A DNA stretch of 64,000 nt, from NCBI GenBank assembly GCA_965198225.1, contig CBDAOY010000006.1, positions 256,001 to 320,000 of the forward strand. Direction: 5' to 3'. The notes beneath the pieces were generated by a model that was given only the letters and a program-made list of their open reading frames with translations, searched no databases and had not been told where the DNA came from. The position numbers and the translations under genes were made by a program. Within the stretch, counting starts at the first letter, position 1, and each line of letters starts with the position of its first letter. This stretch comes from Terriglobia bacterium (GTDB lineage Bacteria; Acidobacteriota; Terriglobia; 20CM-2-55-15). Shown here in pieces: positions 22,022 through 64,000 of this stretch.

Positions 22022-24745
22022 CTAATTGTCCGTCGGAACCAGACGCTTCAACTCTTCGAAGAAGTTCAGGACGAGGATCACGGAGGTCGCGGCGGTTTCG
22101 GTGTCGACTGGTCGGGTCGTCAGGAAGCTCTGGTCGTCCAGTGCGACGTCGTACACTCTCGGCCTACCCCCACTGTAGAAAATGCCCGGCATCCGGAACA
22201 GGGGCGTGACAGAGCCAAGCTCGAACGAGTTCTCCGTTGTCGAGAACGTCGCCACCGCGATCTCATTCGTGGCACGGTTCCGGAAGAACAACTCCCGCCC
22301 GTTATGCGCCCAGACGGGTTCGACACCACCGCCGTTTGAAATCGGCCACTTCCCATCGTTGACGTTCGGGAACGGCCGCACGAAGACCTCATTACGGCCC
22401 GTCTCGTTGGACACGTACGCCAGCCAGCGGCCGTCCCGCGAGACTGCGGGGTACGCCTCAAAAAACCTGTCGCTCACGACCAGCGGCTCCGCTTCGCCGT
22501 CCTCGCCGGGTCGCAGCCCGATGATGTCTGAGGTGGGGTGTTCGGGTGGGGCGGGGTTCCTGCGGACCACCAGCCACCCGTCCGGGCTCCAGACACCCTC
22601 CCCACTCGGGGAGTCCGAGTCTCCGTAGACCAACTCGGCCTCCGCCGTGCCGTTGGCCGGCCGCTGCCACACGCGATAAAATTGGCCGGGACCGACAGAA
22701 TTCGAGTTCCCCCGCCTCGACGCGAACGTGATCTCCCGGCCATCGGGCGTCCAGGCCGGGAGCTGTTCCAGAGCATCATCGAAGGTGAGACGGGACATCG
22801 GGCCATCCGGCAGTACCTTGGTCCAGATGTCCACATTCCCGTCCGTTTCGTTCGTGAACACCACCCGGCCGCCATCCGGAGACAGCCGCAGTCCATTGTG
22901 CTGCCCCTCATTTGTCCAACGGAGCGTTTCGCCCGGGCTGACCGGGCTCGCCTCACCCGAACGGGTCACCCACACGAACTCGCGCACGCCAGAAACCCCG
23001 CCCGCAGCATAGACGAGACTGCCGTCCTCCGACACGGCAAAGGCCATGTCACCGAAGAGGCCGATCGTCAGGCCGTCCACAACAGGAACGGCATTCCCTG
23101 TGAACGCCGCACGCGCCACATCGAACGGCGCGGCCATGAGCTGCCCGTCCGGGGTACCGAACAGCAAGTGCCCTGACGCCGCGTAACGCGCCCATCCTCC
23201 CGGTTTCAGCATCTTCCGCTCGCCCGTCTCCAGGTCCATCGACCAAATGGCTGCGTCACTGCTGGATGAATCGCGCAGCACTGTATGCAGCAAGACCTTC
23301 CCACCGGGCATGGGATGGGGGACGTGGGCGAGGTCTCCCTCCGAACGCTGGGTCACCGTTTCGATCTCGCCGCCGGTATCCGGCACGCGGCTGATGGCGA
23401 AGTCCAGGCCCATGAAGTAGAGCCATCCATCGTCGGACCAGGACGCAGTGCGAGCATTTTCTGCCAGTGTCCGGCCCGGTCCCCCGGCAACCGGCACCAC
23501 CCGCAGCGGGCCCGGATTGCCCTGGACGAACGCCACTTCTCTCCCGTCCGGTGAAACCGCAAAGACAGCGCCTCCTCCGACTCCTGCAGTTCCCGGAATC
23601 GGCCGTGCCTCCAGTCCGTTCCAGTTCCGCATCCACAGCTGCGACCCTCCGCTCGTCTCTGCAGGACCCACATAGATGAGAGCCGAACCATCCCGGGTCA
23701 GCTCAAGCCAGCCGGTCGGGGTCTGCCCGTCCTGGAACGGCGTATCGAATCGGGCGATCGAACGCAAAGGTTCGGTCACAGGACGAAGCAGCGACCAACT
23801 GGCGACGACGGCGAACATCGCGGCTAAGACCGTCATCGCGACCGTCAGCCGATTCCAGCGCCCCACCTCCGGTGTCGAGGCCGACAGCTCGCCGCCCGTG
23901 TCGAACGCGCCTTCCAGGGCCAGCCGCATGTCGGCCATGTCGGAGACCCGCTGCTTCGGCTCTCTCTCGAGGCACCGCGTGAGAAACACACGGAGCGTGG
24001 GCGACAGATCGGACGGCAGTGCCTTCCAGGGGACCTCCCCCCGTAGCACCGCTGCCAGAGTGAGCGACACATCTTCGGCCTCGAAGGCACGTTGTCCAGT
24101 GAACATTTCGTAGACCACGCACCCGAAAGCCCAGATGTCGGTGCGCTTGTCGACCGCCTTCCCCCGGGCTTGCTCGGGGCTCATGTAGGCAGCGGTTCCG
24201 AGGATGATCCCCTGCTGCGTCGCCGCCAGGCTCAGCGTGGGAGATTGCGACAAGCTCTCATCCGTCCCATCGCCCGCAAATGCCTTCGCCAACCCGAAGT
24301 CCAGCACCTTCACTTTGCCGTCGGGAGTGACCTTGATGTTGGCGGGTTTCAGGTCCCGGTGGATCACTCCTTTTTCATGGGCCGCTTCGAGAGCCTCGGC
24401 GATCTGGAGTGCGAGCTGGAGGGATTCTTCGACAGGGATCGCACCACGCTTGAGCCGGTCGGCCAGGGTGTCGCCTTCTACGAGTTCGAGGACCAGGAAC
24501 CGCGTGCCTTCGTGTTCCTCTAGGCCGTGGATGGTTGCGATGTTCGGATGGTTCAGGGACGCCAGCAGCTTTGCTTCACGCTCAAACCGGGCCAGCCGTT
24601 CTTCATCTTTGGCGAATTCCTCGGGTAGAGTCTTGATCGCAACCTGCCGCCCCAGCTTCGAGTCCTGCGCCAGCCATACCGATCCCATGCCGCCCTGCCC
24701 GAGCTTGTCGGTGATCTCGTAGTGGCCCAGAGTCTTCCCGATCAT
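22022..24745 (-). CDS. K1: Ser/Thr kinase - TM - TolB/PD40-like beta-propeller receptor
   Basis: 907 aa; GQGGMG, VAIK, HRDLKPAN, DFG, GTAAYMSPEQ; TM helix; SPDG-type repeats; ends VLNFFEELKRLVP. Confidence 0.93.
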   Translation of the reverse strand: MIGKTLGHYEITDKLGQGGMGSVWLAQDSKLGRQVAIKTLPEEFAKDEERLARFEREAKLLASLNHPNIATIHGLEEHEGTRFLVLELVEGDTLADRLKRGAIPVEESLQLALQIAEALEAAHEKGVIHRDLKPANIKVTPDGKVKVLDFGLAKAFAGDGTDESLSQSPTLSLAATQQGIILGTAAYMSPEQARGKAVDKRTDIWAFGCVVYEMFTGQRAFEAEDVSLTLAAVLRGEVPWKALPSDLSPTLRVFLTRCLEREPKQRVSDMADMRLALEGAFDTGGELSASTPEVGRWNRLTVAMTVLAAMFAVVASWSLLRPVTEPLRSIARFDTPFQDGQTPTGWLELTRDGSALIYVGPAETSGGSQLWMRNWNGLEARPIPGTAGVGGGAVFAVSPDGREVAFVQGNPGPLRVVPVAGGPGRTLAENARTASWSDDGWLYFMGLDFAISRVPDTGGEIETVTQRSEGDLAHVPHPMPGGKVLLHTVLRDSSSSDAAIWSMDLETGERKMLKPGGWARYAASGHLLFGTPDGQLMAAPFDVARAAFTGNAVPVVDGLTIGLFGDMAFAVSEDGSLVYAAGGVSGVREFVWVTRSGEASPVSPGETLRWTNEGQHNGLRLSPDGGRVVFTNETDGNVDIWTKVLPDGPMSRLTFDDALEQLPAWTPDGREITFASRRGNSNSVGPGQFYRVWQRPANGTAEAELVYGDSDSPSGEGVWSPDGWLVVRRNPAPPEHPTSDIIGLRPGEDGEAEPLVVSDRFFEAYPAVSRDGRWLAYVSNETGRNEVFVRPFPNVNDGKWPISNGGGVEPVWAHNGRELFFRNRATNEIAVATFSTTENSFELGSVTPLFRMPGIFYSGGRPRVYDVALDDQSFLTTRPVDTETAATSVILVLNFFEELKRLVPTDN

Positions 24746-27463
24746 GGCACCGGTACCCGTTCCTTGAGTTCTTCGAAGAAGTTCTCGACCACGATGACCT
24801 CGGTCGCGGCCGCCTCGCCCTCGCCCTCGTAGGGGCGGACCATCAGGAACCGCTGATCATCTGACGTGATATCGTAGAAGTTGTCGCCCCGGTTCACGTA
24901 GTATTCCGCCGGTACGGTGAACAGCGTCTCCTGCGCCAGCACCTGCCCCGAGCCTGCATCGAACTGGGCAGCCACCAGCCCACGGTCCTCGTCCACGAAG
25001 AACAGCTCACGCCCGCTGTGCGCCCAGAGCGGCCCGAGCCCCCCGTCCCTCGAGATCCGCACCCTGGCCGAGTTCACATCGGGGAGCGGACGCAGGAACA
25101 CCTCGCGGCGGCCCGTTTCGTCGGAACTGTACGCCAGCCATCTCTCGTCCGGCGACAATGCCGGTTCACCCTCGGCAAACTCCGGTGTCGCCACCAGCGG
25201 TATGGCCGCGCTGTCCTCGCCCGGACGGAAAGCCAGGATGTCGCGCAGGCCCAGACCTACAGCCTCGTTTGCCGCGGCGCGGAGCACGAGCCACTCGCCA
25301 TCGGGACTCCACGACCCTTGGGCGAAGGGCCGCTCTTCGTCGAGCACCAGCACCGCTTCTCCCGTTCCGTCAGCACTCTTAGACCATACGTTCCTGTCAC
25401 CCACGGGACCCGAGAAGTACGTCACGGTCTGACCATCGGGCGTCCAGAATGGCCTGAAGTCCTCATCCTCGGCGAACGTGAGCCGCTCCAGCGGACCGTC
25501 GGGCAGGTGCTTGATCCAGATGTCCTGGTTGCGCTCAACCACGGTGGCGAACGCCATCCGCGTCCCGTCCGGTGAAAGCCTCGGCCCGGAGAAGTTAGAC
25601 CTACCGAATGACCATCCGCGATCGACGGATGTCGCCTGGCCCGAGCGCGTTACCCAGACGAACTCGGAGTCGCCGCTCCCACCGCCAGCCTGATACACAA
25701 GCGTGCTGTCGTCCGACAGCGCGAGGTGGACCGAACCGAGGGAGCGCACACCTACACCCTCGGCCAGCGCCACTGGGTCTCCCGCCAGCTGCAGCGCGTC
25801 CTGGTCGAACGAAGCGGCCAGGAGCCTCCCGTCCGCCGTCACGTTGACCAGATGCCCCGACGCTGCGTAGCGGGCGAACACGCCGCGCACGAGGACCTCG
25901 TGCTCCCCGGTCTCCATGTCCGCCACCGCGATGTCGTACTGGCTAAGGTCGCCAATGGGCTCGTGGGCCACCGTGAACAGCACGCCGCGACCGTTGGGGA
26001 GCGCCTGCGGCCAGAGGTGACCCGTCTCGTTTTGTGCTGTGTCGAGCACGGTGAACGGCTCCACCTCGCCGCTCGCCTCCGGCACGCGGAAAAGAGCACT
26101 CCCCCCAGGAGCCGAGAAGTAGATGTAGCCGTCGGGACCCCAGGCGAGCCCCGCAAGTCCAACGCCGCTCTCCACGATCGCCAACGGGGGCCCACCGCTC
26201 AGTGAGACCGCGCGGACCCCGCCACCTGCGTAGAAGGCCACCCTCCGGCCGTCGGCAGAGAAGACGGGGTTCAGCGCTCCTTCGGAGCCCGCGATGGGCG
26301 TCGCCTGGAGTTGATCACGTCGGCGTAGCCAGAGCTGTCGGCCCTGTTCCCCCGGACCCACGTAGACCATCCGAGTCCCGTCCGGTGAGACTGCGACGTT
26401 CGAGCCGAAGCCGTCGCCCCGCTGAGTGACAGGTAACTCGATGCTGTAGCGGCTGACGGGCCTCGCTTCCGGGGCCGAGGGACGGAGGAGCGCCAAGGCG
26501 AGGGTCCCCGCCAGGACGGCGGCGACTGCCGCTAACGCAACCGAGAGCCGGTTCCACCCACCGACGCCCGCAGGGACTCCAGTCCCATCGGCGGTCCCAT
26601 GTCTGGACCCCGGATCAGCCAGTACTTTCTGAATATCCACCCGGACGTCCGCGATGTCGTGGTACCTGTCCTTGGCCTCCTTCTCCAGGCAACGTTCAAG
26701 GAGCAGCCGAATGCGCGGATGCAGGTTCGGTGGCAGGCTTTTCCAGTCCGGTTCTCTCGCAAGCACCCAGGCGAGAACGTCGGACGCAGTGGGGCCTTCA
26801 TAGACTTGCCGCCCGGTCAGCACCTCGAACAAGACGCATCCGAACGCCCAAATATCCGCACGCTTGTCGACTTCCTGCCCTCTCGCCTGCTCCGGGGACA
26901 TGTACGCGGCGGTTCCGAGGATGATCCCCTGCTGCGTCGCCGCCATGCTCAACGTTGGTGAGTTTGAGAGGCTGGCATCGGCACCGTCCCCTATGAATGC
27001 CTTTGCTAACCCGAAGTCCAGCACCTTCACGTTGCCGTCCGGCGTGACCTTGATGTTCGCAGGCTTCAGAATCCCGATGGATGACACCCTTCTCGTGTGC
27101 GGCTTCTAACGCCTCGGCAATCTGCAGGGCGAGTTTGAGGGATTCTTCGACCGGGATGGCACCACGCTTCAGCCGATCCGCCAGCGTGTCGCCTTCGACC
27201 AGTTCCAAGACGAGGAAACGGGTGCCTTCGTGTTCTTCGAGGCCGTGGATCGTGGCGATATTCGGGTGGTTCAACGAAGCAAGCAGTTTCGCTTCGCGTT
27301 CAAACCGGGCAAGGCGCTCTTCGTCCTTGGCGAACTCCTCGGGAAGCGTCTTGATAGCCACCTGCCGGCCCAACTTCACATCCTGCGCCAGCCACACGGA
27401 TCCCATACCGCCCTGGCCGAGCTTGTCGGTGATCTCGTAGTGGCCGAGCGTCTTGCCGATCAT
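24742..27463 (-). pseudogene. K2: kinase-propeller receptor with a +1 frameshift in the HRDLK motif
   Basis: ORFs 26798-27463 and 24742-27087 join if one T is removed from cgggattctgaag (~27071); could be a sequencing error. Confidence 0.85.
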
Positions 27464-29905
27464 GGCACCGGCACCCGTTCCTTCAGTTCTTCGAACCAGT
27501 TGAGGACGATGTTGATTTGGGGCCGTGCGGATTCCGAGGTTTCGGTTTGGTCCGCAGGTATGATGACCACGAATTGTTCCCCATCAGGCATGATGTCGTA
27601 GCTTCGGTAAGTGCCGAATGCCAGGAACCCCTGGATAGGAAGCGCCTGCTCGTTCGTGACTGTGACGGCACCGTTAGTTGAAACGTCGATGCCAATTATT
27701 CTCCGTGCCCCAGCCCCAGCCTGGAAAACCCGTCGGTAAAACAACTCACTTCCGTCTGGCGACCAGAGCGGAAACACCCCGCCGTTCTGTGTGAGCTGAT
27801 ATTTCACACCTGTCGCCGGAACTGGCTGGACGTAAACTTGGTTGGGCCCACTTTCGCTGGAATAGTACGCCAGCCAGTTCCCGTCAGGGGAGAACACCGA
27901 ACCGGCCGGGAGGGAACCGGGCATGGAGTAAAACACTTCCGGTGCGGCCTCACCATCTAGCGATAACGTCCAGATCTCCCTTTCTCCGTCGCTACCAATC
28001 GCCTGAAAGGAAAGAGTGCGTCCATCCGGTGACCAGGACTCCGGCCAATGCCGGACACCTTCTTCGGCATTCGTTAAGGGTTCGGCGACCCCGCTTCCAT
28101 CTGCGGATTGCCACCAAATGCCCGTGGTTCCATCTCTGTCTGAGGCGAAGGTCAAGCGTTCACCATCAGGCGTCCATATGGGTCGGCTGTTGGTGCCTTC
28201 CCTCGTTAGCTGCCGAATAGCTGAGTTACCAGACAGATCGTAAACCCAGACTTGCCCCTCGCCTTCAGGTGTCTGTACCGCAAGCTGCGTTCCATCCGGC
28301 GAAATGCGGGGCGTCAAATATTGAGCGGGCGGGACGTTGAGCGGTTCCACGCCGCCGTTACGGTCTGCCAATGTGAGAGTACCGTTGGCAGTTGATGTGC
28401 CCGCCCCGACAACGTAAACAAGCGAACCATCGGTAGAGAAACTGAAATGTCCCGTGCCGGTTTGGGCTCCTGGTGCTCTTGCCATACCCTCCACAATCGA
28501 AACCGGTCCACCCGTCACTTCCAGACTCGCCAAATCAAACGGAACTGCGAACAGTCCATCCTCAAGCGCATAGGCGAGATGTCCGGTCGGCACGTAGCGG
28601 GCGTCGCTGCCGCCGCTCAGCAACTCTTTCTGCTCGCCCGTGTCCAGTGACTGCACCACAATCTGTGCTTCGTCCCAACGACCGAGCCCTGTTGCGCTTG
28701 TCAGTGTGAACAGCACCGATTTCCCATCCGGCAATGCTTGTGGTCCATGGACTTGCCCTTCCTCGTTCAATACGAGCGTTTCTGGAGTTCCACCGTTGGC
28801 CGAAACCCACATGACGCCGCCGGGTTCACCCCACACGATCATGTCGTCCTCACTCCAACTCACCCCGAAAGGATTGGTCGCCACATCGCATAGCTTCACA
28901 GGTGCTCCGCCGCTGATGGCAATCGTCTTCAACTGTTGGTCCGTCTGGGACCAGTAGCCAACCGACTGACCATCCGGCGAGAAGAACGGGTTGGTCGGGG
29001 TTTCATCAGTCCCCGGTATGGGATGCGCTTCCAACTCGTCCATCGAACGCAAGTACAGTTGCGTGTTGGCAACATAGACGATGTTGGACCCATCGGGGGA
29101 TACCGCTACAAGAGGACGGCCTGCGTTTGTGAAATCCTGATCGCCGGGTAGCACATGGGAGAACCGGCTGATGGGACGGGGTTCGGGCGGTTTCAGGTAC
29201 CAGCCTGCCACCCCAGCGACGATTACGCTGAGAACGACCGCAAGTGCGATCCATCGCAGTATCGGTCTCGGCGGTGCCTGAATGACATCGGCAACCGGCT
29301 GGACCAGCAGACCTTTGGATCGCTCAACGACTGTTCAATCTCAATCCGCACATCCCCAGCAGCCTGCCACCGGTCCTTCGGTTCCTTGTTCAGACACCGT
29401 CGGAGTAGATGCTGAATACTCGGGTGCAGGCTCGTCTGCAATGCCGTGTACTCAGGGTCGCGGGCAAGAACGGATGCCATCACATCCGACACCAATTCAC
29501 CCTGGAACGCTTGCCGCCCGGTCAGCATCTCGAACAGAACGCAGCCGAATGCCCAAATGTCCGCCCGTTTGTCCACTGGCACACCACGTGCTTGCTCTGG
29601 ACTCATGTAAGCCGCGGTGCCGAGAATGATCCCTTGCTGCGTTGCCGCCAGACTCAATGTCGGCGACTGCGACAAGTTCACATCAGCGCCATCTCCGGCG
29701 AATGCTTTGGCCAGCCCGAAGTCCAGCACCTTGACTTTGCCGTCGGGTGTGACCTTGATATTGGCGGGCTTTAGGTCTCGATGAATCACACCCTTCTCAT
29801 GGGCTGCTTCAAGAGCCTCGGCAATCTGGAGTGCGAGCTTCAGGGATTCTTCGACGGGTATAGCCCCACGCCTCAACCGATCGGCCAGCGTGTCGCCTTC
29901 AACTA

Positions 29906-30719
29906 GGGCGTGTTAACACTAATGAGCATGAATGTTTTATAATCAGGCATGGAGATCACACAGGAGCAGTATTGTCGCATCGAGCCGGAACTGCCGCGTC
30001 AGCGGGGCAACGTCAGTCTTTCGAACCTGACGGTCTTGAACGCCATTTTGTATGTGGCTGAGCAGGGCTGCAAGTGGCGCGGTCTGCCCAAGCGCTTTGG
30101 CAACTGGCACACCATCTACACCCGGATGAACCGCTGGTCCAAGAACGGGGTGCTCGACGCCGTCTTCGAAAAACTCCAGCGCGAGCAACTGGTGCGCATC
30201 CGGGTGGAAGCCGTTTCGATGGACTCGACCATTGTGAAGGTGCATCCCGACGGCACAGGAGCGTTAAAAAAAACGGTCCGCAAGCGATCGGCAAATCCCG
30301 CGGTGGATGGACCACCAAGATTCATCTGGTTGCCGCGAATGCTCGAACGGCGATAACGTTTGCGCTCTCGCCCGGCCAAGCGCACGACGCCCCGCAGGGC
30401 CGCGAGCTGCTCGCCGGCCTGGGGCCGTTGCCCGCGCCGCTGCCGCTGCTGATGGACCGTGCCTACCAGGACGACCAGACCCGCCAATTGGCTCTGGATT
30501 TTGGGTGGATTCCCGTCGTGCCGCCCAAGCGCAACCGCTTGGAGCCGTGGGAATACGACCGCGTTCTCTACCGCCGCAGGAACGAAGTCGAGAGGCTCTT
30601 CCGCCGACTCAAAGGTTTCCGGCGTATATTCTCCCGCTTCGATAAACTCGACGTCATGTTCCTCGCCTTCCTTCACTTCGCTCTCATCGTCGAGGCACTA
30701 CGTTAGTGTTAACACGCCC
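29906..30719 (+). mobile_element. IS5-family element (two-ORF type), copy 1
   Basis: TIRs gggcgtgttaacactaa / ttagtgttaacacgccc, TA duplicated within a CTAG target, 814 bp. Confidence 0.93.
29949..30706 (+). CDS. IS5-family transposase, two overlapping ORFs likely joined by -1 frameshift at an A run (~30266-30273)
   Basis: GCKWRGLPKRFGNWHTIYTR, MDSTIVKVH; second frame IGKSRGGWTTKIH, DRAY, RNEVERLFRRLKGFRR. Confidence 0.9.
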
Positions 30720-30979
30720 TAGTTCGAGGACGAGGAACCGCGTGCCGCTGTCTTCTTCCAAGCCGTGGATCGTGGCAATGTTCGGGTGGTTTAGCGAAGC
30801 GAGTAGCTTGGCTTCACGTTCAAACCGCGCCAACCGCTCCTCGTCCTTCGCGAACTCCTCGGGTAGAGTCTTGATCGCAACCTGCCGACCCAGCTTCGAG
30901 TCCTGCGCCAGCCACACCGATCCCATGCCTCCCTGACCGAGCTTGTCGGTGATCTCGTAGTGGCCCAGCGTCTTGCCGA

Positions 30980-33703
30980 TCATGGCACCGGCACCCGTTC
31001 CTTCAGTTCTTCGAAGAAGTTCTCGACCACGATGACCTCGGTCGCAGCCGCCTCGCCCTCGCCCTCGTAGGGGCGGACCATCAGGAACCGCTGATCATCT
31101 GACGTGATGTCGTAGAAGTTGTCGCCCGGGCTCACCTGATATCCCGCCGGTATGGTGAACAGCGTCTCCTGCGCCAGCACCTGCCCCGAGCCTGGATCGA
31201 ACTGGGCAGCCACCAGCCCACGGTCCTCATCCACGAAGAACAGCTCACGCCCGCTGTGCGCCCAGAGCGGCCCGAGCCCCCCGTCCCTCGAGACCCGCAC
31301 CCTGGCCGAGTTCACATCGGGGAGCGGACGCACGAACACCTCGTAGCTGCCTGTTTCGTTCGAACTGTACGCCAGCCATCTGCCGTCCGGCGACAATGCC
31401 GGCGCTCCCTCGGCAAACTCGGGTGTCGCCACCAGCGGTATGGCCGCGCTGTCCTCGCCCGGACGGAAAGCCAGGATGTCGCGCAGGCCAAGACCCACTG
31501 CCACGGTTGCCGCGGCGCGGAGCACGAGCCACTCCCCATCGGGACTCCACGACCCTTGGGCGAAGCCGCGCTCTTCGTCGAGCACCAGCACCGCTTCTCC
31601 CGTTCCGTCCGCACGCTTAGACCATACGGTCCCTTCGTTCAGGGGACCCGAAAAGTACGTCACGGTCTGACCATCGGGCGTCCAGAATGGCCTGATGTCA
31701 TCATCCTCGGAGAACGTGAGACGCTCCCGCGGTCCGTCGGGCAGGTGCTTGATCCAGATGTCCCGGTTGCCCTCAACCTCGGCGTTGAACGCCATCCGCG
31801 TCCCGTCCGGTGATAGCCTCGACCCGAAGTTGGTAGGGCTAACGAATGTCCATCCACGATCGACGGACGTCGCCTGGCCCGAGCGCGTTACCCAGACGAA
31901 CTCGGACTGGAGGGCCCCGCCTCCGGCCTGATACACGAGCGTGCCGTCGTCCGACAGCGCGAGGTGGACCGAACCGAGGGAGCGCACACCTACACCCTCG
32001 GTCAGCGCCACTGGGTCTCCCGCCAACTGCAGCCCGTCGTGGTCGAACGGAGCGGCCAGGAGCGTCCCGTCCGCCGTCACGTAGACCAGATGCCCCGACG
32101 CCGCGTAGCGGGCGAACACGCCGCGCACGAGGATCTCGTGCTCCCCGGTCTCCATGTCCGCTACCGCAATGTCGTGCTGGCTGACGTCGCCACTGGGCTC
32201 GTGGGCCACCGTGAGCAGCACGCCGCGACCGTTGGGGAGCGCCTGCGGCCAGATGTGACCCGTCTCGCTCTGTGCCGGGTCGAGCACGGTGAACGGCTCC
32301 ACCTCGCCGCTCGTCTCCGGCACGCGGACAAGAGCACTACTCCCTTGAGCCCGGAAGTAGATGTAGCCATCGGGACCCCAGGCGAGCCCCCCAACTCCAA
32401 CGCCACTCTCCACGATCGCCAACGGTGGCCCACCGCTCAGTGAGACCACGCGGACCCCGCCACCTTCGTGGAAGGCCACCCTCTGGCCGTCGGGAGACAA
32501 TACGGGGTTCTCCGCTCCCTCGGTGCCCGCGATGGGCGTCGCCTGAAGTTGATCACGTCGGCGTAGCCAGAGCTGTATGCCGCTCTGTTCCCCCGGACCC
32601 ACATAGACCATCTGAGTCCCGTCCGGTGAGACCGCGACGCTCGAGCCTCTGCCGTTGGCCCGCTGAGTGACAGGTAACTCGATGCTGTAGCGGCTGACGG
32701 GCCTCGCTTCCGGGGCCGAGGGACGGAGGAGCGACCAGGCGAGGGTCCCCGTCAGGACGGCGGCGACTGCAGCGAACGCAACCGCCAGCCGTTTCCACCG
32801 ACCGACGCCCGCAGGGACTCCAGTCCCATCGGCGGTCCCATGTCTGAACCCCGGATCAGCCATTACTTTCTGAATATCCACCCGAGCATCGGAAATGTCA
32901 CCGTATCGGTCTCTCGACTCCTTCTCCAAGCAACGATCCAGGAGCAGCCGAATGCGTGGATGCACGTTCGGCGGCAGGCTCTTCCAATCCGGTTCTCTCG
33001 CAAGCACTCCGGCAAGAACGTCGGACGCGGTGGGGCCTTCATAGACTTGCCGCCCGGTTACCATCTCGAACAAGACGCAGCCGAACGCCCAGATGTCGGC
33101 ACGCTTGTCCACTTCCTGCCCTCTCGCTTGCTCCGGAGACATGTACGCGGCCGTCCCGAGGATCACTCCCTTCTGCGTCGCCGCCATGCTCAGGGTCGGG
33201 GAGTTCGACAGGCTGGCATCGGCACCGTCGCCTATGAAGGCCTTCGCCAAACCAAAGTCCAGCACCTTGACCTTACCGTCGGGCGTCACCTTTATGTTGC
33301 CGGGTTTCAGATCCCGGTGAATCACACCCTTTTCATGCGCTGCTTCTAACGCCTCGGCAATCTGCAGGGCGAGTCTGAGGGATTCTTCGACCGGGATGGC
33401 CCCGCGCTTCAGCCGGTCCGCCAGCGTGTCGCCTTCGACCAATTCGAGGACAAGGAACCGGGTACCGTCGTGTTCTTCGAGGCCGTGGATCGTGGCGATA
33501 TTCGGGTGGTTCAACGAAGCAAGCAGTTTCGCTTCGCGTTCAAACCGGGCAAGGCGCTCTTCGTCCTTGGCGAACTCCTCGGGAAGCGTCTTGATAGCCA
33601 CCTGCCGGCCCAACTTCACATCCTGCGCCAGCCACACGGACCCCATGCCGCCCTGCCCGAGCTTGTCGGTGATCTCGTAGTGGCCGAGCGTCTTGCCGAT
33701 CAT
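30980..33703 (-). CDS. K4: Ser/Thr kinase - TM - beta-propeller receptor (recent paralog of K2)
   Basis: 907 aa intact ORF; all kinase motifs; ends ENFFEELKERVPVP. Confidence 0.93.
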   Translation of the reverse strand: MIGKTLGHYEITDKLGQGGMGSVWLAQDVKLGRQVAIKTLPEEFAKDEERLARFEREAKLLASLNHPNIATIHGLEEHDGTRFLVLELVEGDTLADRLKRGAIPVEESLRLALQIAEALEAAHEKGVIHRDLKPGNIKVTPDGKVKVLDFGLAKAFIGDGADASLSNSPTLSMAATQKGVILGTAAYMSPEQARGQEVDKRADIWAFGCVLFEMVTGRQVYEGPTASDVLAGVLAREPDWKSLPPNVHPRIRLLLDRCLEKESRDRYGDISDARVDIQKVMADPGFRHGTADGTGVPAGVGRWKRLAVAFAAVAAVLTGTLAWSLLRPSAPEARPVSRYSIELPVTQRANGRGSSVAVSPDGTQMVYVGPGEQSGIQLWLRRRDQLQATPIAGTEGAENPVLSPDGQRVAFHEGGGVRVVSLSGGPPLAIVESGVGVGGLAWGPDGYIYFRAQGSSALVRVPETSGEVEPFTVLDPAQSETGHIWPQALPNGRGVLLTVAHEPSGDVSQHDIAVADMETGEHEILVRGVFARYAASGHLVYVTADGTLLAAPFDHDGLQLAGDPVALTEGVGVRSLGSVHLALSDDGTLVYQAGGGALQSEFVWVTRSGQATSVDRGWTFVSPTNFGSRLSPDGTRMAFNAEVEGNRDIWIKHLPDGPRERLTFSEDDDIRPFWTPDGQTVTYFSGPLNEGTVWSKRADGTGEAVLVLDEERGFAQGSWSPDGEWLVLRAAATVAVGLGLRDILAFRPGEDSAAIPLVATPEFAEGAPALSPDGRWLAYSSNETGSYEVFVRPLPDVNSARVRVSRDGGLGPLWAHSGRELFFVDEDRGLVAAQFDPGSGQVLAQETLFTIPAGYQVSPGDNFYDITSDDQRFLMVRPYEGEGEAAATEVIVVENFFEELKERVPVP

Positions 33704-38965: not shown

Positions 38966-39046
38966 GGGTTGCCTCCAAGTAAAGGCCGGCGGTCATAGAC
39001 CGCCGCTACAGAGCATCACTTCGCCAATTTGCTGAAACTTGCGTAA

Positions 39047-39669: not shown

Positions 39670-39672
39670 TCC

Positions 39673-45953: not shown

Positions 45954-46021
45954 CCTGTCAATCCCCCCTGGTGGTTGGCTGCACTGAGGTTGACCGTGCA
46001 AATCCGTACAATCGGTTCAAA

Positions 46022-46057
46022 GAGTTCGTAGCTGCCGAGTTGGGTGCCGGGGGTCAT
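46022..46057 (-). pseudogene. Kinase 5' stub (MTPGTQLGSYE)
   Basis: Identical to the first ~11 codons of K5 and K9 and coupled to the K8 stop by ATGA. Confidence 0.8.
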
Positions 46058-50554: not shown

Positions 50555-50652
50555 TCAAACAGTCAAGTTGCGCGAACAGCGCTCTTCCGGTGTGATTCCA
50601 CTTTTGGAGCACAGGCGACTTATACGGGAGTTGAGAATACGAATCCTGCCGC

Positions 50653-54190: not shown

Positions 54191-55581
54191 TGGTTTTCTA
54201 GTTCCGCGGTCCAGTTGACGATGATCGTGACGGGAGGAGGGTCCAGGCTCAATATGATCACATCGTCTTGACTCCAACTCCCACCGGATGGCCGTGGCGG
54301 AGTTTCGGTGATCGTCTGGACCGCCCCTCCGCTGGCCGGGACTCGCTTGAGCAATCCGCCAGCAAAGAACCCTATGGATTCCCCATCCGGCGCCCAGAAT
54401 GGATACAGGGCCCCCTCGGTTCCTGCTAGCAGACGGGGAACCTCTTGATCCAGCCCCTGGATCCACAATTGTGGTGTCCTTGCACCACCGTCAAGAGGCA
54501 CACCGCCATATACGAAACGGCGACCATCAGGAGATAGGGCAAAGCCGAAACGCATGGATTTGGTATCGGGGACGACGGACAGCCGCGTCGGCTGAGCGGT
54601 AGGTTCTGAAGGTCCCGTAAACTGCTGTCCCACAACAGCGACAACTAACAGCAGTAGTGCAAGGGCCCACACCATTCGTTCTTTACGAAGGTTTCCGGGA
54701 ACAGTCGGTGCAGTTTCATCGACCACGGGTGGCGAAAATGCTCCCCCTAGTGCCAGGCGAACATCGCCAACGTCACGAATACGCTGCTTCTGATTCTTCT
54801 GTAGGCATCGCTGAATTGTGTTCGCGACTGCTGGCGGGGCGGAAGCGATTGCCTCCCAATCGGGTTCCTTCATCAGGATCGCAGCTAACGTCTCCGACAC
54901 ATCCGCGGCCTGAAACGCTAATTTGCCCGTCAGCAATTCATACAAGACGCATCCGAACGCCCAGACGTCGGTGCGTTTGTCGACGGTGCGGCCCTTCGCC
55001 TGTTCCGGCGACATGTAGGCCGCCGTTCCGAGGATTACGCCCTGTTGGGTTGCGGTCATGCTCAGGGTCGGGGAGTTCGATAGGTTCAAGTCTGAACCAT
55101 CCTCGGTAAAAGCTTTGGCGAGTCCGAAGTCAAGGACCTTCACTTTGCCTTCGGGTGTGACCTTGATGTTCAACGGCTTGAGATCGCGGTGGATGACACC
55201 TTTCTCGTGGGCGGCTTCGAGTGCCTCTGCAATCTGGAGGGCGAGCTTCAGCGATTCTTCGACAGGGATAGCGCCGCTCTTCAGCCGATCCGCCAGCGTG
55301 TCGCCTTCGACGAGTTCGAGGACCAGGAACCGTGTGCCGTGGTCTTCCTCGAGTCCGTGAATGGTCGCTATGTTCGGGTGATTCAGGGAAGCGAGTAATT
55401 TGGCTTCACGCTCAAACCGTGCCAGGCGTTCTCCGTCCTGTGCGAACTCTTCAGGGAGGGTCTTGATCGCTACTTCACGCCCGAGCTTGGAGTCCCGCGC
55501 ACGCCACACTTCGCCCATGCCACCCTTGCCGAGGGCAGAAACGACTTCATAGTGCGCGAGCTTTGAACCGGCCTGAATCAC
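54187..55581 (-). CDS. K10: kinase-TM receptor with most of the propeller deleted in frame
   Basis: 464 aa; complete kinase and TM, about two blades, then SLDPPPVTIIVNWTAELENQ as in the K6 terminus. Confidence 0.85.
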   Translation of the reverse strand: MIQAGSKLAHYEVVSALGKGGMGEVWRARDSKLGREVAIKTLPEEFAQDGERLARFEREAKLLASLNHPNIATIHGLEEDHGTRFLVLELVEGDTLADRLKSGAIPVEESLKLALQIAEALEAAHEKGVIHRDLKPLNIKVTPEGKVKVLDFGLAKAFTEDGSDLNLSNSPTLSMTATQQGVILGTAAYMSPEQAKGRTVDKRTDVWAFGCVLYELLTGKLAFQAADVSETLAAILMKEPDWEAIASAPPAVANTIQRCLQKNQKQRIRDVGDVRLALGGAFSPPVVDETAPTVPGNLRKERMVWALALLLLVVAVVGQQFTGPSEPTAQPTRLSVVPDTKSMRFGFALSPDGRRFVYGGVPLDGGARTPQLWIQGLDQEVPRLLAGTEGALYPFWAPDGESIGFFAGGLLKRVPASGGAVQTITETPPRPSGGSWSQDDVIILSLDPPPVTIIVNWTAELENQ

Positions 55582-58337: not shown

Positions 58338-58468
58338 AGGACAATGAAGCGAGAGTTGTCGTGTTCTTCGAGTCCGTAGATCGCAGCGATGGCCGGGTGG
58401 TTGAGCGAAGCCAGGAGTTTGGCTTCACGTTCGAATCCGAGCAACGCGTTCGGCATCTGGGGAAAAAT
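58338..58468 (-). pseudogene. Kinase gene fragment
   Basis: DAERVAR / FEREAKLLASLNHPAIAAIYGLEEHDNSRFIVL. Confidence 0.75.
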
Positions 58469-60003: not shown

Positions 60004-61619
60004 CTACGGCACCGGCACCTTTTCCTTCAACTCTTCATCCCAGTTCAGGATCACCCGGATCTCATCGTCCGACGGGTCGCTGATCATCAGGAAGCGGTCC
60101 CCGTCGGGATGGAGGTCGTATGAACGGAAGGTGGAGTCCGGATACCGGAACGGGCCATCGAAAAGCCGAACCCTTTCGCCGAAGGTCATCGTTGACGGGT
60201 CCGTGATCTCTGTCGCCCAGATCTGGTTTCCGTTGCGGTAGAACAACTCCCGGCCATCGGGCGACCACAGCGGTTCGATCCCGAAATCAACCGTGTGCAG
60301 GTCCCCGACGCAATCGAGCAAAGCGCATACGAATACCTGGTCGCGACCGCTTTCATCGGATGTGTAAGCCACCCAGTTGCCGTCGGGAGAAAACTGGGCG
60401 AAACGGTCGGAACCCGCGGTTTGGACAAGGAGTTCGGTCTTGTCGTCGTCGACCGACAACAGCCAGATGTCGGCGCCCGTGTCCGGGTGGACATTCCCGT
60501 ATGCGAGCAGACGCTTCTCCGGAAGCCAGGATTCCGGTTGTTGACTGAACTCCTGGTTCAGGATTTCCTGGGCCTGACCGCCCCCGGTCGCATCAATGGA
60601 GTAGAGGTTCATGCTCCCGGACGTGTTCTGGGCAAACACGAGACTCCTGCTGTCCATCCAGAGAAAGCTTAAAATTCGATCCGCTATCTTTGTCGGGACC
60701 CCGCTCGCAATGTCGGTCACGAGGAGCGCCCGGTCCTCCCTCCTCACGGCGACGCGATCGCCACCTGGGGACAGCCGGGGTATTCGGTAATGGCCGGCCG
60801 GTATACCCAGTGGCTCCACGTCTCCCTCTCGATCCACCCACACCAATGCTTCCCGCAGCGGGCGCGGGACATAAGAAAGGGTTCCATTACTCGCGATCGA
60901 ATAGACAAAACCGGTAACCGGGCCGCCCAAAACGTCCGTCAGGATACCGACGTTATTACCAACCGTTGACAGACTCTCCAGATCGAAGGGTGTCGCTGTA
61001 ACTTGTGCGGTCTGGGTGAAGATCAGATGGCCAGTCGGGATGTAGGAAACATCATAGCCAAAGCCTGGGACTAGTACACTCTCCCACTGCATCGTGTCGA
61101 ACGAAAGGACCCCGACGCTGTTCGAGGAAGACACCACGGTAAAAACGACGCCGCCCCCGTCGGGCAAGTAGTGGGGCAAGATGTGTCTTGCCGTCGGGAG
61201 TGACCTTGATGTTCGCAGGTTTCAGATCCCGGTGGATGACGCCTTTCTCATGCGCGGCTTCTAACGCCTCGGCAATCTGGAGTGACAGCCTGAGGGACTC
61301 TTCGACAGGCATCGCACCACGCTTCACCCGATCCGCGAGCGTGTCCCCTTCGACGAGTTCGAGGACGAGGAAGCGGGTGCCGCTGTCTTCTTCAAGGCCG
61401 TAGATGGCGGCAATGTTGGGATGGTTCAACGATGCGAGAAGCTTGGCTTCGCGTTCAAACCGGGCGAGTCGCTCTTCCTCTCGGGCAAACTCTTCGGGAA
61501 GGGTCTTGATCGCCACCTGGCGTCCCAGCTTCTGGTCGGTCGCCTGATACACCTCGCCCATTCCGCCACGGCCGAGCTCAGAAGTAAATTTCGTAATGTC
61601 CCAGCGTCTTTCCGATCAT
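60004..61619 (-). pseudogene. K11: kinase-propeller receptor with a 5' frameshift and a large internal deletion
   Basis: MIGKTLGHYEI at 61619, extra T near 61588; kinase stops at KVTPDGK (~61185) and fuses out of frame to mid-propeller PHYLPDG; ends LNWDEELKEKVPVP. Confidence 0.85.
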
Positions 61620-61629
61620 TTACTCTTCG

Positions 61630-64000
61630 TCACGGCACCCGTTCCCTCAGTTCTTCAATCCAGTTGATGATGACGTTGACTTGCAGGGATTGCGTGGCGG
61701 CGGCACTACCGGTTGTCAGTCTTACGACGAACTTCTGGCCATCCTCAGTGACATCGTAGCTTCTCCGACCAAACATATTCGGAGGCGCAACGCTCGCGTC
61801 GCGGGGAAACAACTCCACGGGATTGCCACGGTCGAAGGTCGGCTCGGTCTCGACCTCGATAACCTGAAACGAATCACGAGCGCCAGTGTCCGCGTATACG
61901 AGTTCCTGTCCGTTCCGGATCCACACGGGAGCCGACGCAGCGTCGGTCGAGATGGATATCGGACCCGCATCACCCTCGACCGGATACGGCTGCACGTAAA
62001 GCTGCCCCTCGCCCAGCTCATAGACGAAGAAGCGGCCGTCCGGCGAAAAATCGGCATCGCGACCTCTCGGTACGATGACTCCCGCGGGAGCAGAGTCATC
62101 GTACCGGGTGCCTCTTTCCCAGGCATGAATCCCCTCACCGGAAACGAACAGCAGGACATCTCCGTCCGGCGACCAGGCGAAGGGTCCGAAGGGTTCATCC
62201 ACCTCGGTTCCGGGGAGCAACGTCGGAGTCCCGCCTGGAGCCGATGGAGTTGTCCACAGCGCTTTGCCACTTAGAAACGTGATGTCGGCCCCGTCATGTG
62301 ACCATAAAGGGCGTGTTCCACGCGCAATCCGATTCCATTGGTCATCTTGAATGTTGTAGATCCAAATGTTCGATCCGTCGTCGTCGTCAACTTGTACAGC
62401 GACGCGCAAATCGTCTGGAGAGAATCTCGGAAAGATGTAAAGCTGGGGGTCAGCCGTGAGCACTTCAGGCGTTCCGTCGCGGTCCAGGAATGCGAGGCCC
62501 CGCTCCGCACTGGCACCACCCGGAATGTGGACGAGAGTTCCCTGGGCAGAGACATCGTACTGCCCACTCCCGGTGGCGAAATCCATACCATTCGCTCGCT
62601 GGGTTCCGGCAACGATGGGCACCGGCCCTCCGGTAGTCGTGAGTGTTTGCGGATCGAATCGAAGTGCGACCAGGTCACTCTCCAGCGCGAACACAAGATG
62701 TCCGGTCTCAATGTAACGAGCGTCGCTGCCCCCGTCCCAGATGACCGTTCGATTTCCGGTTCCGGGAGTTTCAGCCACGATCTGGGCTTCGTCCCATCGG
62801 GCAATACCGGTTACCGACGTCAGAGAGAACAGGACCGTCTCGCCGTCGGGTAGCATCTGGGGTCCGTCGGCTTGTTCGCCGGGTTCGGTTGCGATCAGCA
62901 TCGTCGCCGTACCGCCGTCTGCCGGAACCGTCATGATCCCTCCGGGCTGTCCGTAAAGGATCCTGCCGTCGGGTCCCCAACTTGCACCAAACAGATTAGT
63001 GGCCGGTGTAATGGGCACTGGAATACCACCCTCCACCGAGACCCTCTTGATCTGGTTGTCCCTGGCGGAAAAGAACCCAATCGAGTTGCCGTCGGGCGAG
63101 AAGAACGGCATCGCCAGGACCTCGTTTGTACCCGCAATGGGACGGGCTTGCTGCTCATCCAGTTTCTTAAGGTACAACTGGTCGTTGGCAACGTAGACGA
63201 ATTGCGATCCGTCGGGCGCAACGGCCAACACCGGACGCCCCTGGCGGGTGAAAACCTGGTTTGCGGGCAGGACAAACGGGAAGCGGACTACGCGCTTTTC
63301 TTCCGGCAACGGTTCGGGCTTCAGGTTCCACGTGGCGATGACGGCTACGACTGCAACGAAGACAAGGGCGGCAACCCACGGAAGAATCGGTCGCTGTCCA
63401 AGCTCGCCTGAAGCCAGCATGACCTGGCTACCGCCCGGGTCTGCCAGAACCTGCTCCAACTCCACACGCACGTCCCCAATGTCATGCCATCGCTGCTTCG
63501 GCTCCTTCTCCAGACACCTCCGGAGCAGATCCCGCAACTTCGGATGAATCGTCGGGGGCAATCCCTTGTAGTCGGGATCGGATTTCAACACCGACGCCAT
63601 CACGTCCGACATCAACTCACCCCGGAACACCTGGCGGCCCGAAAGCATTTCGTAGAGGACACAGCCGAAGGCCCAGATATCGGCGCGCTTGTCGACCGTC
63701 ACGCCCCGTGCCTGCTCGGGGGACATGTATGCGGCTGTTCCCAGGATCACGCCTTGTTGGGTTGCGGCCATGCTGAGCGTGGGGGACTGCGACAGGCTCA
63801 CGTCCACACCATCCCCGGCAAACGCCTTTGCCAGTCCGAAGTCCAGGACCTTGATCTTCCCGTCGGGCGTGACCTTGATGTTCTCGGGCTTCAGGTCGCG
63901 GTGGATGACACCCTTCTCGTGTGCGGCTTCCAACGCTTCAGCGATCTGGAGCGCGAGTTCGAGGGATTCTTCCACAGCGACGGCGCCGCGCTTCAACCGG
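61630..64000 (-). CDS. K12: Ser/Thr kinase - TM - beta-propeller receptor (5' end outside window)
   Basis: HRDLKPEN, DFG, TM, propeller repeats, ends INWIEELRERVP. Confidence 0.9.
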   Translation of the reverse strand, partial: RLKRGAVAVEESLELALQIAEALEAAHEKGVIHRDLKPENIKVTPDGKIKVLDFGLAKAFAGDGVDVSLSQSPTLSMAATQQGVILGTAAYMSPEQARGVTVDKRADIWAFGCVLYEMLSGRQVFRGELMSDVMASVLKSDPDYKGLPPTIHPKLRDLLRRCLEKEPKQRWHDIGDVRVELEQVLADPGGSQVMLASGELGQRPILPWVAALVFVAVVAVIATWNLKPEPLPEEKRVVRFPFVLPANQVFTRQGRPVLAVAPDGSQFVYVANDQLYLKKLDEQQARPIAGTNEVLAMPFFSPDGNSIGFFSARDNQIKRVSVEGGIPVPITPATNLFGASWGPDGRILYGQPGGIMTVPADGGTATMLIATEPGEQADGPQMLPDGETVLFSLTSVTGIARWDEAQIVAETPGTGNRTVIWDGGSDARYIETGHLVFALESDLVALRFDPQTLTTTGGPVPIVAGTQRANGMDFATGSGQYDVSAQGTLVHIPGGASAERGLAFLDRDGTPEVLTADPQLYIFPRFSPDDLRVAVQVDDDDGSNIWIYNIQDDQWNRIARGTRPLWSHDGADITFLSGKALWTTPSAPGGTPTLLPGTEVDEPFGPFAWSPDGDVLLFVSGEGIHAWERGTRYDDSAPAGVIVPRGRDADFSPDGRFFVYELGEGQLYVQPYPVEGDAGPISISTDAASAPVWIRNGQELVYADTGARDSFQVIEVETEPTFDRGNPVELFPRDASVAPPNMFGRRSYDVTEDGQKFVVRLTTGSAAATQSLQVNVIINWIEELRERVP

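Follow-up and report, generated by a model that had tools for sequence, protein, structure and literature searches.

Seams between tandem kinase-sensor genes of a Terriglobia bacterium as probable passive substrates of recombination among paralogs

Unequal crossing-over and gene conversion shape the evolution of tandem multigene families, a mode described as partial concerted evolution or birth-and-death. Cassette variation by gene conversion is known from pilE/pilS of Neisseria and vlsE of Borrelia, and integron cassettes are likewise arrayed. Polymorphic toxins of the Rhs/CDI type, according to the available part of their description, diversify their C-terminal domains by recombination with stand-alone cassettes (PMC3482391). 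For the family treated here, literature searches on the family, the propeller, Acidobacteria, paralogs and gene conversion returned no description of the junctions analyzed below and only one paper that bears on it: in Candidatus Solibacter usitatus Ellin6076, Ser/Thr kinases likewise form a large paralog group, among the notable expansions and with "little substitution saturation," and the available portion of that text contains neither "gene conversion" nor "WD40" and describes no junctions, coupling, or mosaics (PMC3174227).

We analyzed a 64,000-nt stretch of a Terriglobia genome (assembly GCA_965198225.1, contig CBDAOY010000006.1, positions 256,001 to 320,000; hereafter the window) in which paralogous kinase-sensor genes stand in tandem, all on the minus strand, with neighbors overlapping by ATGA. 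Like tandem multigene families, the array consists of direct paralogs whose conserved part is homogenized while the divergent part escapes, and it holds mosaic tracts, duplicated units ending in homology, pseudogenes, and scraps. It differs from them in that the homogenized part straddles a gene boundary, taking in one gene's tail and the start of its neighbor, and in that the pool seems common to genomes whose housekeeping genes are ~70% identical. As in pilE/pilS, vlsE, and integrons, related units are arrayed with conserved borders that would serve recombination, but the array shows no split into silent and expressed copies, and its units are whole genes with their own starts. An integron cassette array does not match, since the repeats are direct rather than inverted and no integrase or attC pair was found, and neither does a shufflon or other invertible-segment system, since the direct repeats lie on one strand and no recombinase was found; the 26 window ORFs scanned against Pfam include transposases but no site-specific recombinase or integrase. 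Polymorphic toxins, as far as the available text goes, share with the array a conserved stretch beside a variable module, which permits exchange, and orphan scraps downstream, but are toxins with immunity genes at a single expressed locus (PMC3482391), whereas array units are complete kinase-sensor genes with no sign of toxicity, and their conserved stretch spans two genes.

The array proteins are ~900-aa Ser/Thr kinases continued by a membrane helix and a PD40/TolB-like propeller. Pfam Pkinase (PF00069) scored 168.9-180.1 bits for K4, K5, Ke, and Kf (172.9 for K4; cut-off 31.7), PD40 scored 38.4-103.1 bits (103.1 for K4; cut-off 20.9), and TolB chains matched K4 with an E value of 3.6e-10. 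The translations contain the catalytic motifs that we take to be the glycine loop, the VAIK lysine, HRDLKPxN, DFG, and SPE (YMSPEQ), and residues K38, D131, K133, N136, D149, and G151 are invariant across 73 sequences. In K4 (30980..33703), an intact 907-aa gene, the kinase occupies residues 1-285, the membrane helix 308-325, and the all-beta sensor 338-893; the AlphaFold2 model (mean pLDDT 83.1) includes a confidently modeled tail, made of a strand (889-893) and a helix (896-903). The propeller sensor is likely to face outward. Searched by tblastn with the K4 kinase, the genome returned 46 HSPs that reach 60% identity and 80 aa; it holds some 40-50 paralogs in total. The family occurs in 20 of 20 related genomes (2-57 matches each), and databases hold at least 8000 relatives. 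Tight pairing in tandem is a general trait of the family: in other species, where 80 loci were compared, a family kinase came within 160 nt after 11 of 41 gene tails, five of them with the same 4-nt overlap.

Read along the minus strand, the array begins with Ka (61630..64000), whose start lies beyond the window at ~C6:320290 and whose tail reads …ELRERVP before the stop. Of Kb (60004..61632, spaced junction included), only kinase residues ~10-147 and sensor residues ~528-907 are left, and a kinase scrap follows at 58331-58465. Kc (54187..55581; 464 aa) keeps the kinase, the membrane helix, and ~130 residues from the sensor's beginning; an in-frame fusion joins these to a leader-type tail block of 64 nt, which is 89% identical to the last 64 nt of Kg, with which it has nothing else in common. 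Kd (50644..54190), of the MTPGT type, is broken by frameshifts and by a copy of an 823-nt insertion sequence (50866-51688), while its tail survives at 50644-50796; another copy of this element (29901-30723), inverted relative to the one in Kd, splits the MIGKT gene K3 (27460..30983) at kinase codon ~88. Ke (46054..48747), an intact 897-aa leader-type gene ending in …LLEENQ, is followed by an 11-codon MTPGT stub (46025..46057, including the junction; homology to paralogous loci ends after codon 11 of the alignment), a minus-strand amidase gene (44376..46001; Pfam Amidase, 373.6 bits), and Kf (41640..44348), an intact, mosaic 902-aa MIGKT gene that is terminal and ends in …LVPVP and TAG. The sole sign of a retroelement in the window is a group II intron piece at 40099-40361 (Rfam); no reverse transcriptase with a template/variable repeat pair, as a diversity-generating retroelement would need, was noticed there. 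Kg (36327..38996) is of the leader type, with the tail …NWTAELANQ and an N-terminal frameshift near 38750, and K5 (33700..36330) is an intact 876-aa gene of the MTPGT type. Beyond K4 and K3 lie K2 (24742..27463), a K4-like copy with junctions at both ends and a 1-nt frameshift near 27070 inside the HRDLKP codons, and K1 (22022..24745), an intact 907-aa ORF with a MIGKT start and the tail …LVPTDN, the last gene of the first sub-array. Pseudogene calls rest on frameshifts that may be assembly errors; the apparent frameshift of K3 near 29313 is probably one, and contigs of runs X3 and X5 (Logan contigs of public reads) carry an extra G behind 29313.

Two stereotyped junctions recur between these genes. 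Direct reading of the minus strand confirmed the positions listed in a first-pass annotation of this DNA. In junction A, …ELKERVPVP ends in a TGA that overlaps the ATG of MIGKTLGHYEI (24742-24745, 27460-27463, 30980-30983, and 33700-33703), with a spaced variant at 61619-61632 (…ELRERVP, TGA, 10 nt, then ATG with MIGKTLGHYEIYF and a stop). In junction B, found also by repeat search, …NQ and TGA overlap the start of MTPGTQLGSYE (36327-36330, 46054-46057, and 54187-54190). The window thus holds seven ATGA stop/start overlaps, which suggest that the array genes are translationally coupled. Reversed control patterns gave no match in 20 genomes, so the likeness of the junctions reflects paralogy and not chance. 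The proposed gene order (a leader ending in NQ, then an MTPGT gene, then MIGKT genes) holds for Kg-K5-K4-K3-K2-K1, but after Ke and Kc it persists only as remnants; across the genome, eight of nine regex-found NQ tails precede an M[TN]PG[TS] start. The repeated block, put at ~400 bp in the first-pass annotation, instead consists of a ~50-nt tail and ~600-870 nt of kinase at 72-86% nucleotide identity. The tail is not specific to junctions, as most of the 29 regex-matched tails in the genome have no MIGKT gene after them. An Rfam scan found no known RNA family at the seams. A scan of 21300-41200 cannot define sub-operons, since its 4 promoter-like sites compare with 3.8±2.1 in shuffled sequence and its 20 terminator-like sites with 15.4±5.3.

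The four copies of junction A are not independent. Positions 24483-27516 and 30721-33756 are 91% identical over 3037 nt (K2 and K4), so that a single duplication of ~2.9 kb explains two of the four copies, which fall into two pairs. The duplicated unit begins 53 nt ahead of the start codon and reaches ~100 nt into the following gene; identity is 96-100% at both seams, with the sensor at ~91% and the kinase core at ~86%. The expected duplication of a gene-length unit was thus found once, with both ends inside conserved blocks. The 50-nt identity reported earlier (27464-27515 and 33704-33755) is exact and belongs to a longer repeat of 100 nt on the minus strand (27417..27516 and its twin 33657-33756), whose first copy comprises the last 53 nt of the K3 tail and the first 47 nt of K2. 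The 300-nt tract that holds this repeat has 294/300 matches, compared with 2341/2577 in the remaining duplicate (Fisher p 1.6e-6). The K3 and K5 sensors upstream of the two copies, at first thought unrelated, are homologous and collinear over the whole sensor (189/570 identical, 33%; E 1e-62).

To quantify conservation at synonymous sites, we determined same-codon matches in excess over codon usage in 188 of the 190 pairs formed by 20 non-leader paralogs, after setting aside the two whose sensor identity reached 0.45 or more. The excess was +0.264 [0.17, 0.36] for residues 1-20, +0.142 for kinase residues 21-160, +0.050 for kinase residues 161-280, +0.015 for the linker, +0.018 for the sensor, and +0.184 for the tail. 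The tail window had the lowest synonymous mismatch of 95 scanned (0.10 per codon; next best, 0.21). In this comparison, which the first-pass annotation had proposed, tail and gene start therefore proved far from saturated, with an excess above that of the sensor. Between genomes, with one or two genes per genome, single genes of the same genus gave an excess for kinase residues 21-160 of +0.15 to +0.17, those of other genera and of a draft same-genus genome (G001) +0.04 to +0.08, and those of another family +0.02. Because this excess drops with genome distance, it does not reflect universal codon selection. In recent duplicates the gradient is reversed: sensor dS is 0.11 in K2/K4, against 0.18 over residues 132-907, and 0.15 in Ke and its paralog C6:985563, against 0.29 over the whole gene. 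Hypermutation of the sensor was ruled out, since in these duplicates sensor dS lies below kinase dS, which argues against targeted mutagenesis of the sensor; sensor dN/dS in recent duplicates is 0.6-0.7.

Kinase and sensor parts have had different histories, as anticipated, according to trees, AU tests, and mosaic tracts. Four of five AU tests reject the clade of the other module (p ≤ 0.0009), and the fifth, {K4,K1} on kinase data, gave p 0.38; the K1 sensor is sister to the K4 sensor (SH-aLRT 100), and the kinase tree is poorly resolved, with 4 of 24 inner branches starred. For 35 kinase 5′ regions (468 nt), the PHI test gave p 0.002 on all sites and a non-significant p 0.69 on third positions alone. 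Ke is a recent duplicate of C6:985563 from residue ~221 onward only, with codon identity of 0.86-0.95 over residues 221-880 and 0.42-0.73 before residue 221. Likeness between Kf and C9:781466 is confined to residues ~281-600 (codon identity 0.70-0.96), with flanks at 0.30-0.61 and the 27-codon tail at 0.73. Tracts thus end near residues 220, 290, and 600, inside kinase and sensor too, so that sensors were not exchanged as whole units only, contrary to the original proposal. Among the 1653 paralog pairs, those with less than 86% core identity yielded 424 exact stretches of 23 nt or more. These lie throughout the first 430 nt of the kinase and are densest at its start and at conserved motifs, so that places long enough for RecA-type pairing exist outside the seam as well. 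Logan contigs of public reads break at the conserved kinase and tail blocks, and the listed joints have sides of 20-30 nt and 90% likeness; within the reach of such contigs, nothing pointed to excision, whether programmed or still in progress, or to present-day switching.

Exchange also appears to reach beyond this genome (G000). At the purH locus, G000 and the related genome G003 are 66.7-71.8% identical (4-fold identity 0.43), while identity rises to 90.0% across 2552 nt for the G003 counterpart of K4, to 91.1% across 1576 nt for a second family gene, and to 98.2% for an insertion sequence. Alternative neighbors, which the first-pass annotation had suggested looking for, do occur: a K4-type gene precedes a MIGKT gene both in the window and on contig C9, and is terminal in G003 and at locus L065. 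Likewise, Ke is followed by the 11-codon stub and the amidase gene, and its paralog C6:985563 by a whole MTPGT gene. Two ORFs were considered as synteny anchors: that at 19335-20537 was dropped as a multicopy IS256-type transposase with dozens of copies in relatives, and that at 17965-19269 had no match in four genomes. The synonymous excess at the seams, the conflict between trees, and the identity across genomes together indicate that the conserved ends do recombine.

Gene conversion does not easily account for how uniform the 30-nt tail core is. Among 17 rows classed by eye from printed DNA, seven terminal tails depart from the consensus in 0.7 of 10 codons on average and six junction tails in 0.8, where codon usage would, by our own arithmetic, lead one to expect ~5.8. 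It is unlikely that a re-initiation region, made up of ~30 nt at the upstream gene's end and the first ~20 codons of the coupled gene, fixes synonymous sites by its constraint alone. Such a signal would account for the peaks of the excess at the seam (+0.26 and +0.18), for the persistence of +0.25 each in tail and first 20 codons against a gene of G005, a genome of another genus, where the kinase falls to +0.05, and for junction B, whose 13 copies from three genomes are letter-identical at 26 of 28 positions. However, terminal tails with no kinase gene downstream are as uniform as junction tails, G005 has 44 nearly invariant tail cores and no junction A match, the tail as read has no clear Shine-Dalgarno match at the usual spacing, and the excess over 160 kinase codons, the mosaics, and the tree conflict are left unexplained. 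Short-tract conversion without flanking homology is itself a weak explanation of the uniform core in G005, where nucleotide-level selection or dispersal along with mobile DNA may play a part. A mobile element that spreads, or targets, short units of tail plus conserved downstream piece would fit the 14 tail units found beside one whole family gene in 80 kb of G005, several of them with stop codons a few codons upstream of the tail; the unit common to G000 (C6:643003) and G005 (L032), down to its 25 upstream codons and its downstream piece; the ~90-nt downstream piece that terminal tails of G000 and L065 have in common; and the near-identical insertion sequences of G000 and G003. Yet the units keep no fixed distance or orientation to a transposase gene, their left ends in G005 are ragged rather than sharp, as in decayed gene remnants, and since they were located by a tail search, scraps of other gene parts, such as the kinase scrap in the window, are under-counted, and we rate such an element as very unlikely to be the cause. 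The ends of the G005 units loosely resemble attC core sites in our own reading.

Protein-level conservation and shared descent, with no recombination, could explain why MIGKTLGHYEI and NWFEEL… are old enough to be present in distant Acidobacteriota and Gemmatimonadota genomes, why the tail folds into a confidently modeled strand plus helix, and why old pairs reach a 4-fold identity of only 0.37-0.46 in the kinase. As a full account it is scarcely credible against a seam synonymous excess well above that of the sensor, the reversed pattern in recent duplicates, the AU tests, and the closer likeness of the first 300 nt of the K2/K4 duplicate. The first-pass annotation had seen the seams as handles for swapping, duplicating, or looping out whole sensors while the frame is preserved. 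On this reading selection would keep the seams identical, and the cell or the population would gain a sensor repertoire that can be shuffled. The seams are indeed the most nucleotide-conserved parts of the genes, an exact match of 100 nt crosses two of them, the gene-length duplication terminates in them, one sensor type has different neighbors in other genomes, sensor dN/dS is as given above, and terminal tails retain ATGA or longer scraps of a lost MIGKT start. Against selection of this kind stand the tract ends inside kinase and sensor, the lack of a recombinase gene among the scanned ORFs, the equal uniformity of tails with no following gene and in a genus that lacks junction A, and the many destructive rearrangements (K3 and Kd split by insertion sequences, Kb and Kc truncated, the 11-codon stub), and selected handles seem improbable. 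Nothing separates a frame- and coupling-preserving design from the passive behavior of any tandem paralog array, and the term handle is partly supported, for passive recombination substrates only. We are similarly doubtful of a further version, in which the seam (~30-54-nt tail core, ATGA, and first ~20 codons) would be the letter-perfect boundary of a gene cassette, related bacteria would share a pool of cassettes that enter, leave, and re-pair by homologous recombination, in frame and coupled, and the uniform tail core would reflect selection for exchangeability.

We therefore favor, as the probable explanation, that the seams are boundaries of tandem, translationally coupled paralogs in a mosaic birth-and-death family, whose ends recombine passively with no dedicated shuffling device; both recombination as the cause and the absence of any programme are what we infer from the patterns above. 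Seam likeness would then have three sources: protein constraint on the C-terminal strand-plus-helix tail and the kinase N-terminus, retention of the 4-nt ATGA stop/start overlap, and recurrent gene conversion and homologous recombination between paralogs of this genome, with exchange between related genomes through horizontal transfer, all in a genome rich in insertion sequences. Recombination would keep even synonymous sites alike across the tail and the first ~160-220 kinase codons, and the fast-diverging sensors would have dropped below the identity needed to recombine. Because the conserved blocks are kept alike in this way, they would have served as substrates for unequal crossing-over, giving the one-gene-length duplication, and for the exchange of kinase and sensor modules.

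On this explanation the array is a clean bacterial example of partial concerted evolution, in which signaling modules are kept alike while ligand-facing propellers diverge. Annotators should be warned that such arrays are mosaic, collapse in short-read assemblies, and hold many scraps. Were the cassette reading true, the seams would define a recombination-based "sensor repertoire," akin to toxin-tip displacement, for signaling genes. Exchange appears to cross genomes that are otherwise ~70% identical, and if the sensors recognize varied outside cues, this would give such bacteria a route to build and trade a large sensor repertoire.

The window spans 256001-320000 of contig C6, and from ∼22 kb to its end lies an array in which 12 or more genes and gene remnants, all on the minus strand, belong to the kinase-sensor family. 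In intact members (∼880-910 aa), a Hanks-type kinase (Pkinase profile scores of 169-180 bits) is joined through a membrane helix to a PD40/TolB-like sensor that is all-beta; in an AlphaFold2 model of K4 (mean pLDDT 83.1), the helix is predicted at residues 308-325, strands run from 338 to 893, and the tail forms a predicted strand (889-893) and helix (896-903). From 5′ to 3′ along the minus strand come Ka, the remnant Kb, a kinase scrap, the truncated and fused Kc, Kd, which an insertion sequence (IS) interrupts, a further IS, Ke, an 11-codon stub, an amidase gene, Kf, a group II intron piece, Kg, K5, K4, the IS-split K3, the frameshifted K2, and K1. Contigs from two public runs carry, at full depth, an extra G at position 29313 that would abolish the K3 frameshift. 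The assembly therefore probably contains small indel errors, and pseudogene calls that depend on a frameshift only (K2, Kg, and Kd) are uncertain. Upstream of the array are ordinary metabolism genes, cytochrome c552 (nrfA-like, 435 bits) and selA (440 bits), at 705-5103. A Na+/H+ exchanger gene (13182-14711) is flanked by a 273-nt direct repeat (12872-13144 and 14708-14980, 97% identical).

The first-pass annotation had described two stereotyped seams, each comprising a gene tail and the next gene's start: junction A, in which a tail ending ELKERVPVP overlaps an MIGKTLGHYEI start through ATGA, and junction B, in which a tail ending NQ overlaps MTPGTQLGSYE. All were found at the positions assigned to them, and a repeat search of the window grouped the junctions in a single repeat family, spaced 2718, 3520, and 2720 nt apart. 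The reported identity of 27464-27515 and 33704-33755 is likewise correct (52 nt, inside a 100-nt exact match). Because 24483-27516 and 30721-33756 form a 3-kb duplicate with 91% identity, the four junction-A copies represent two pairs. The K3 and K5 sensors, described as unrelated, are instead homologs along their entire length (33% identity, E = 1e-62), and the proposed repeat block of ∼400 bp was too short, as paralog kinases match over ∼600-870 nt at 72-86%. Matching positions in the K2/K4 duplicate numbered 294 over the initial 300 nt, a stretch that takes in the tail of the preceding gene, versus 2341 of 2577 in the remainder (p = 1.6e-6), and identity was high again (96-98%) at the next seam.

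We then compared synonymous sites, which the annotation had proposed as a check for saturation, using the share of same-amino-acid codons with the same codon relative to codon usage. Among 188 of the 190 pairs from 20 non-leader paralogs (lacking the NQ tail; two pairs with sensor identity of ≥0.45 were left out), seam sites proved unsaturated: the excess was +0.264 at residues 1-20 and +0.184 in the tail versus +0.018 in the sensor, with +0.142 at kinase residues 21-160, +0.050 at 161-280, and +0.015 in the linker. A scan of the 28 intact paralogs (29 extracted ORFs minus one without a true tail) yielded 95 10-residue windows with an identical amino acid string in at least 8 genes. Synonymous mismatch was lowest in the tail window (0.10 per codon), followed by kinase motifs (0.21-0.36), and was close to expectation (0.41-0.47) at residues 175-215. 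A universal codon preference is not the source of the excess: against single genes of other genomes, the kinase excess was +0.15 to +0.17 within the genus, +0.04 to +0.08 when the draft same-genus genome G001 or genomes from other genera were used, and +0.02 with a genome from another taxonomic family.

Recent duplicates reverse this gradient, with sensors more alike than kinase-containing stretches, which we take as a sign of exchange: dS was 0.11 in the K2/K4 sensor versus 0.18 over a longer stretch including the kinase, and 0.15 versus 0.29 for Ke and its paralog C6:985563. Codon identity of the latter pair was 0.86-0.95 over residues 221 to 880 but only 0.42-0.73 before 221. Kf is a mosaic gene that has only residues ∼281-600 in common with the paralog C9:781466, to whose sensor its own is sister. 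In trees, the K4 sensor is sister to that of K1 and its kinase groups with Kf, while the kinase of C6:32720 groups with that gene's own array neighbors and its sensor with a leader-type (NQ-tailed) gene. AU tests rejected the other module's clade in four of five cases (p ≤ 0.0009); the exception was the {K4,K1} clade, with which the kinase data were compatible (p = 0.38). A PHI test on 35 kinase 5′ regions gave p = 0.002 with all sites and p = 0.69 with third positions alone. One chimeric N-terminus on contig C9 reads MNPGTQLG-HYEITDKLGQGGMG-EVWKARD.

The source genome (G000) contains 46 kinase HSPs ≥60% identical to K4. By regular expression, it has 29 VP-type and 9 NQ tails, 8 of the latter followed by an M[TN]PG[TS] start. 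A pattern search at the DNA level located junction A at 8 sites in G000, 2 in G002, and 4 in G003 (the latter two of the same genus) but in none of 17 other related genomes; junction B (9, 1, and 3 copies) is confined to that genus. Close tandem pairing is a general trait of the family: in 80 loci from other species, a family kinase lies within 160 nt after 11 of 41 gene tails, with a 4-nt overlap in 5. Two of these come from Acidobacteriota-type genomes whose starts read MIG[KT]T. Among named relatives, those closest to the K4 sensor are from Gemmatimonadota (≤50% aa identity), followed by Acidobacteriota. Databases list family members as [quoted passage not shown] A decayed paralogous array at C9:750500-765000 comprises a leader, a K3-like gene with a chimeric N-terminus, K2′, and K1′; it carries an inserted ORF as well as several in-frame stops, and matches the Kg/K5 start and K2-K1 of the window at 82-87% identity.

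Between G000 and G003, the purH locus is collinear but just 66.7-71.8% identical (4-fold identity 0.43), whereas the K4 counterpart is 90.0% identical over 2552 nt, a second family gene 91.1% over 1576 nt, and an IS 98.2%. Kinase-sensor genes appear to have been exchanged horizontally. Across G003 loci L009, L010, and L013, family genes are 88-92% identical to G000 at the nucleotide level, against 67-72% for purH. The G003 counterpart ends in a TAG stop followed by unrelated DNA, and its 5′ end is cut at the start of an adjacent minus-strand ORF and of unrelated DNA, taken to be an IS. At locus L065, a 93%-identical copy has another piece downstream, so one sensor type occurs in differing contexts, and the family behaves as if it belonged to a common, mobile pool of genes. 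G005, which represents another genus, carries a copy of the IS256-type transposase at 19335-20537 (Transposase_mut, 491 bits) with 94% aa identity, although its purH is just 71% identical (4-fold identity 0.36); this suggests that mobile elements recently passed between genera. K3 (29901-30723) and Kd (50866-51688) each contain, in opposite orientations, an 823-nt element whose DDE_Tnp_1 ORF is partial; the two are 98.7% identical, with several further genome copies at ∼98%. At least 7 more copies of the 1.7-kb IS at 48758-50499 (DDE_Tnp_1_6 transposase) exist, at 97-99.6% identity. The 815-nt repeat at 40057-40871, with 98% identical copies on C5 and C8, matches group II intron D1-D4 (RF02005, 118.2 bits, 40099-40361, plus strand) and resembles an intron piece without an ORF more than an IS.

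Tails of the EELKERVPVP type hardly vary in nucleotide sequence over their final ten codons. In 17 tails sorted by eye, synonymous mismatches to the consensus averaged 0.8 at junctions (n = 6; 0, 0, 0, 2, 3, 0), 0.7 in terminal genes, which no family gene follows (n = 7; 3, 1, 0, 0, 0, 1, 0), and 2.75 in short or solo tails (n = 4; 3, 4, 0, 4); by arithmetic, codon usage alone predicts about 5.8 in 10. G005 holds 44 nearly invariant copies of the tail core and, by DNA pattern search, no junction A. Many of these are short units in which stop codons lie only a few codons before the tail, and 14 tail units versus one whole gene were found in 80 kb. Solo tails occur in G000 as well. Such units (G005 loci L020-L043; G000 C6:341571, C6:632851, C6:643003, and C9:786069) comprise the last ∼18 family codons and a conserved downstream piece, without an attached gene; one is common to both genomes, with the same 25 codons upstream. 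A ∼90-nt piece (…GTTCGAGCC…CTCTCGAT…CAATCCA…TAGTCGCC), located downstream of Kf at ∼41540-41639 and 3′ of terminal tails on C4, C6, C9, and L065, had no Rfam match and could be a common 3′ region or IS target. Tails of differing amino acid sequence show synonymous differences as well, which fits a tail variant that is young and has spread widely better than a universal nucleotide requirement. Short-tract conversion, lacking flanking homology, would be a weak explanation of the tail core's spread.

Taken together, these data suggest that the conserved seams and kinase 5′ halves recombine, and that duplication and module exchange resulted. The proposal that the tail-plus-kinase block lets sensors be swapped or duplicated holds to that extent. 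Seams designed for sensor shuffling fit less well: exchange tracts end not only at seams but also within the kinase and within the sensor, exact matches of pairing length are spread across the kinase 5′ half, the only mobility genes found among the window ORFs scanned were transposases, with the group II intron piece besides, and IS insertion, truncation, or replacement has destroyed several members. A passive mosaic family evolving by birth and death suits the evidence better than a designed handle, and the features of the array that deserve attention are its sharing across genomes and its unusually uniform tail core.
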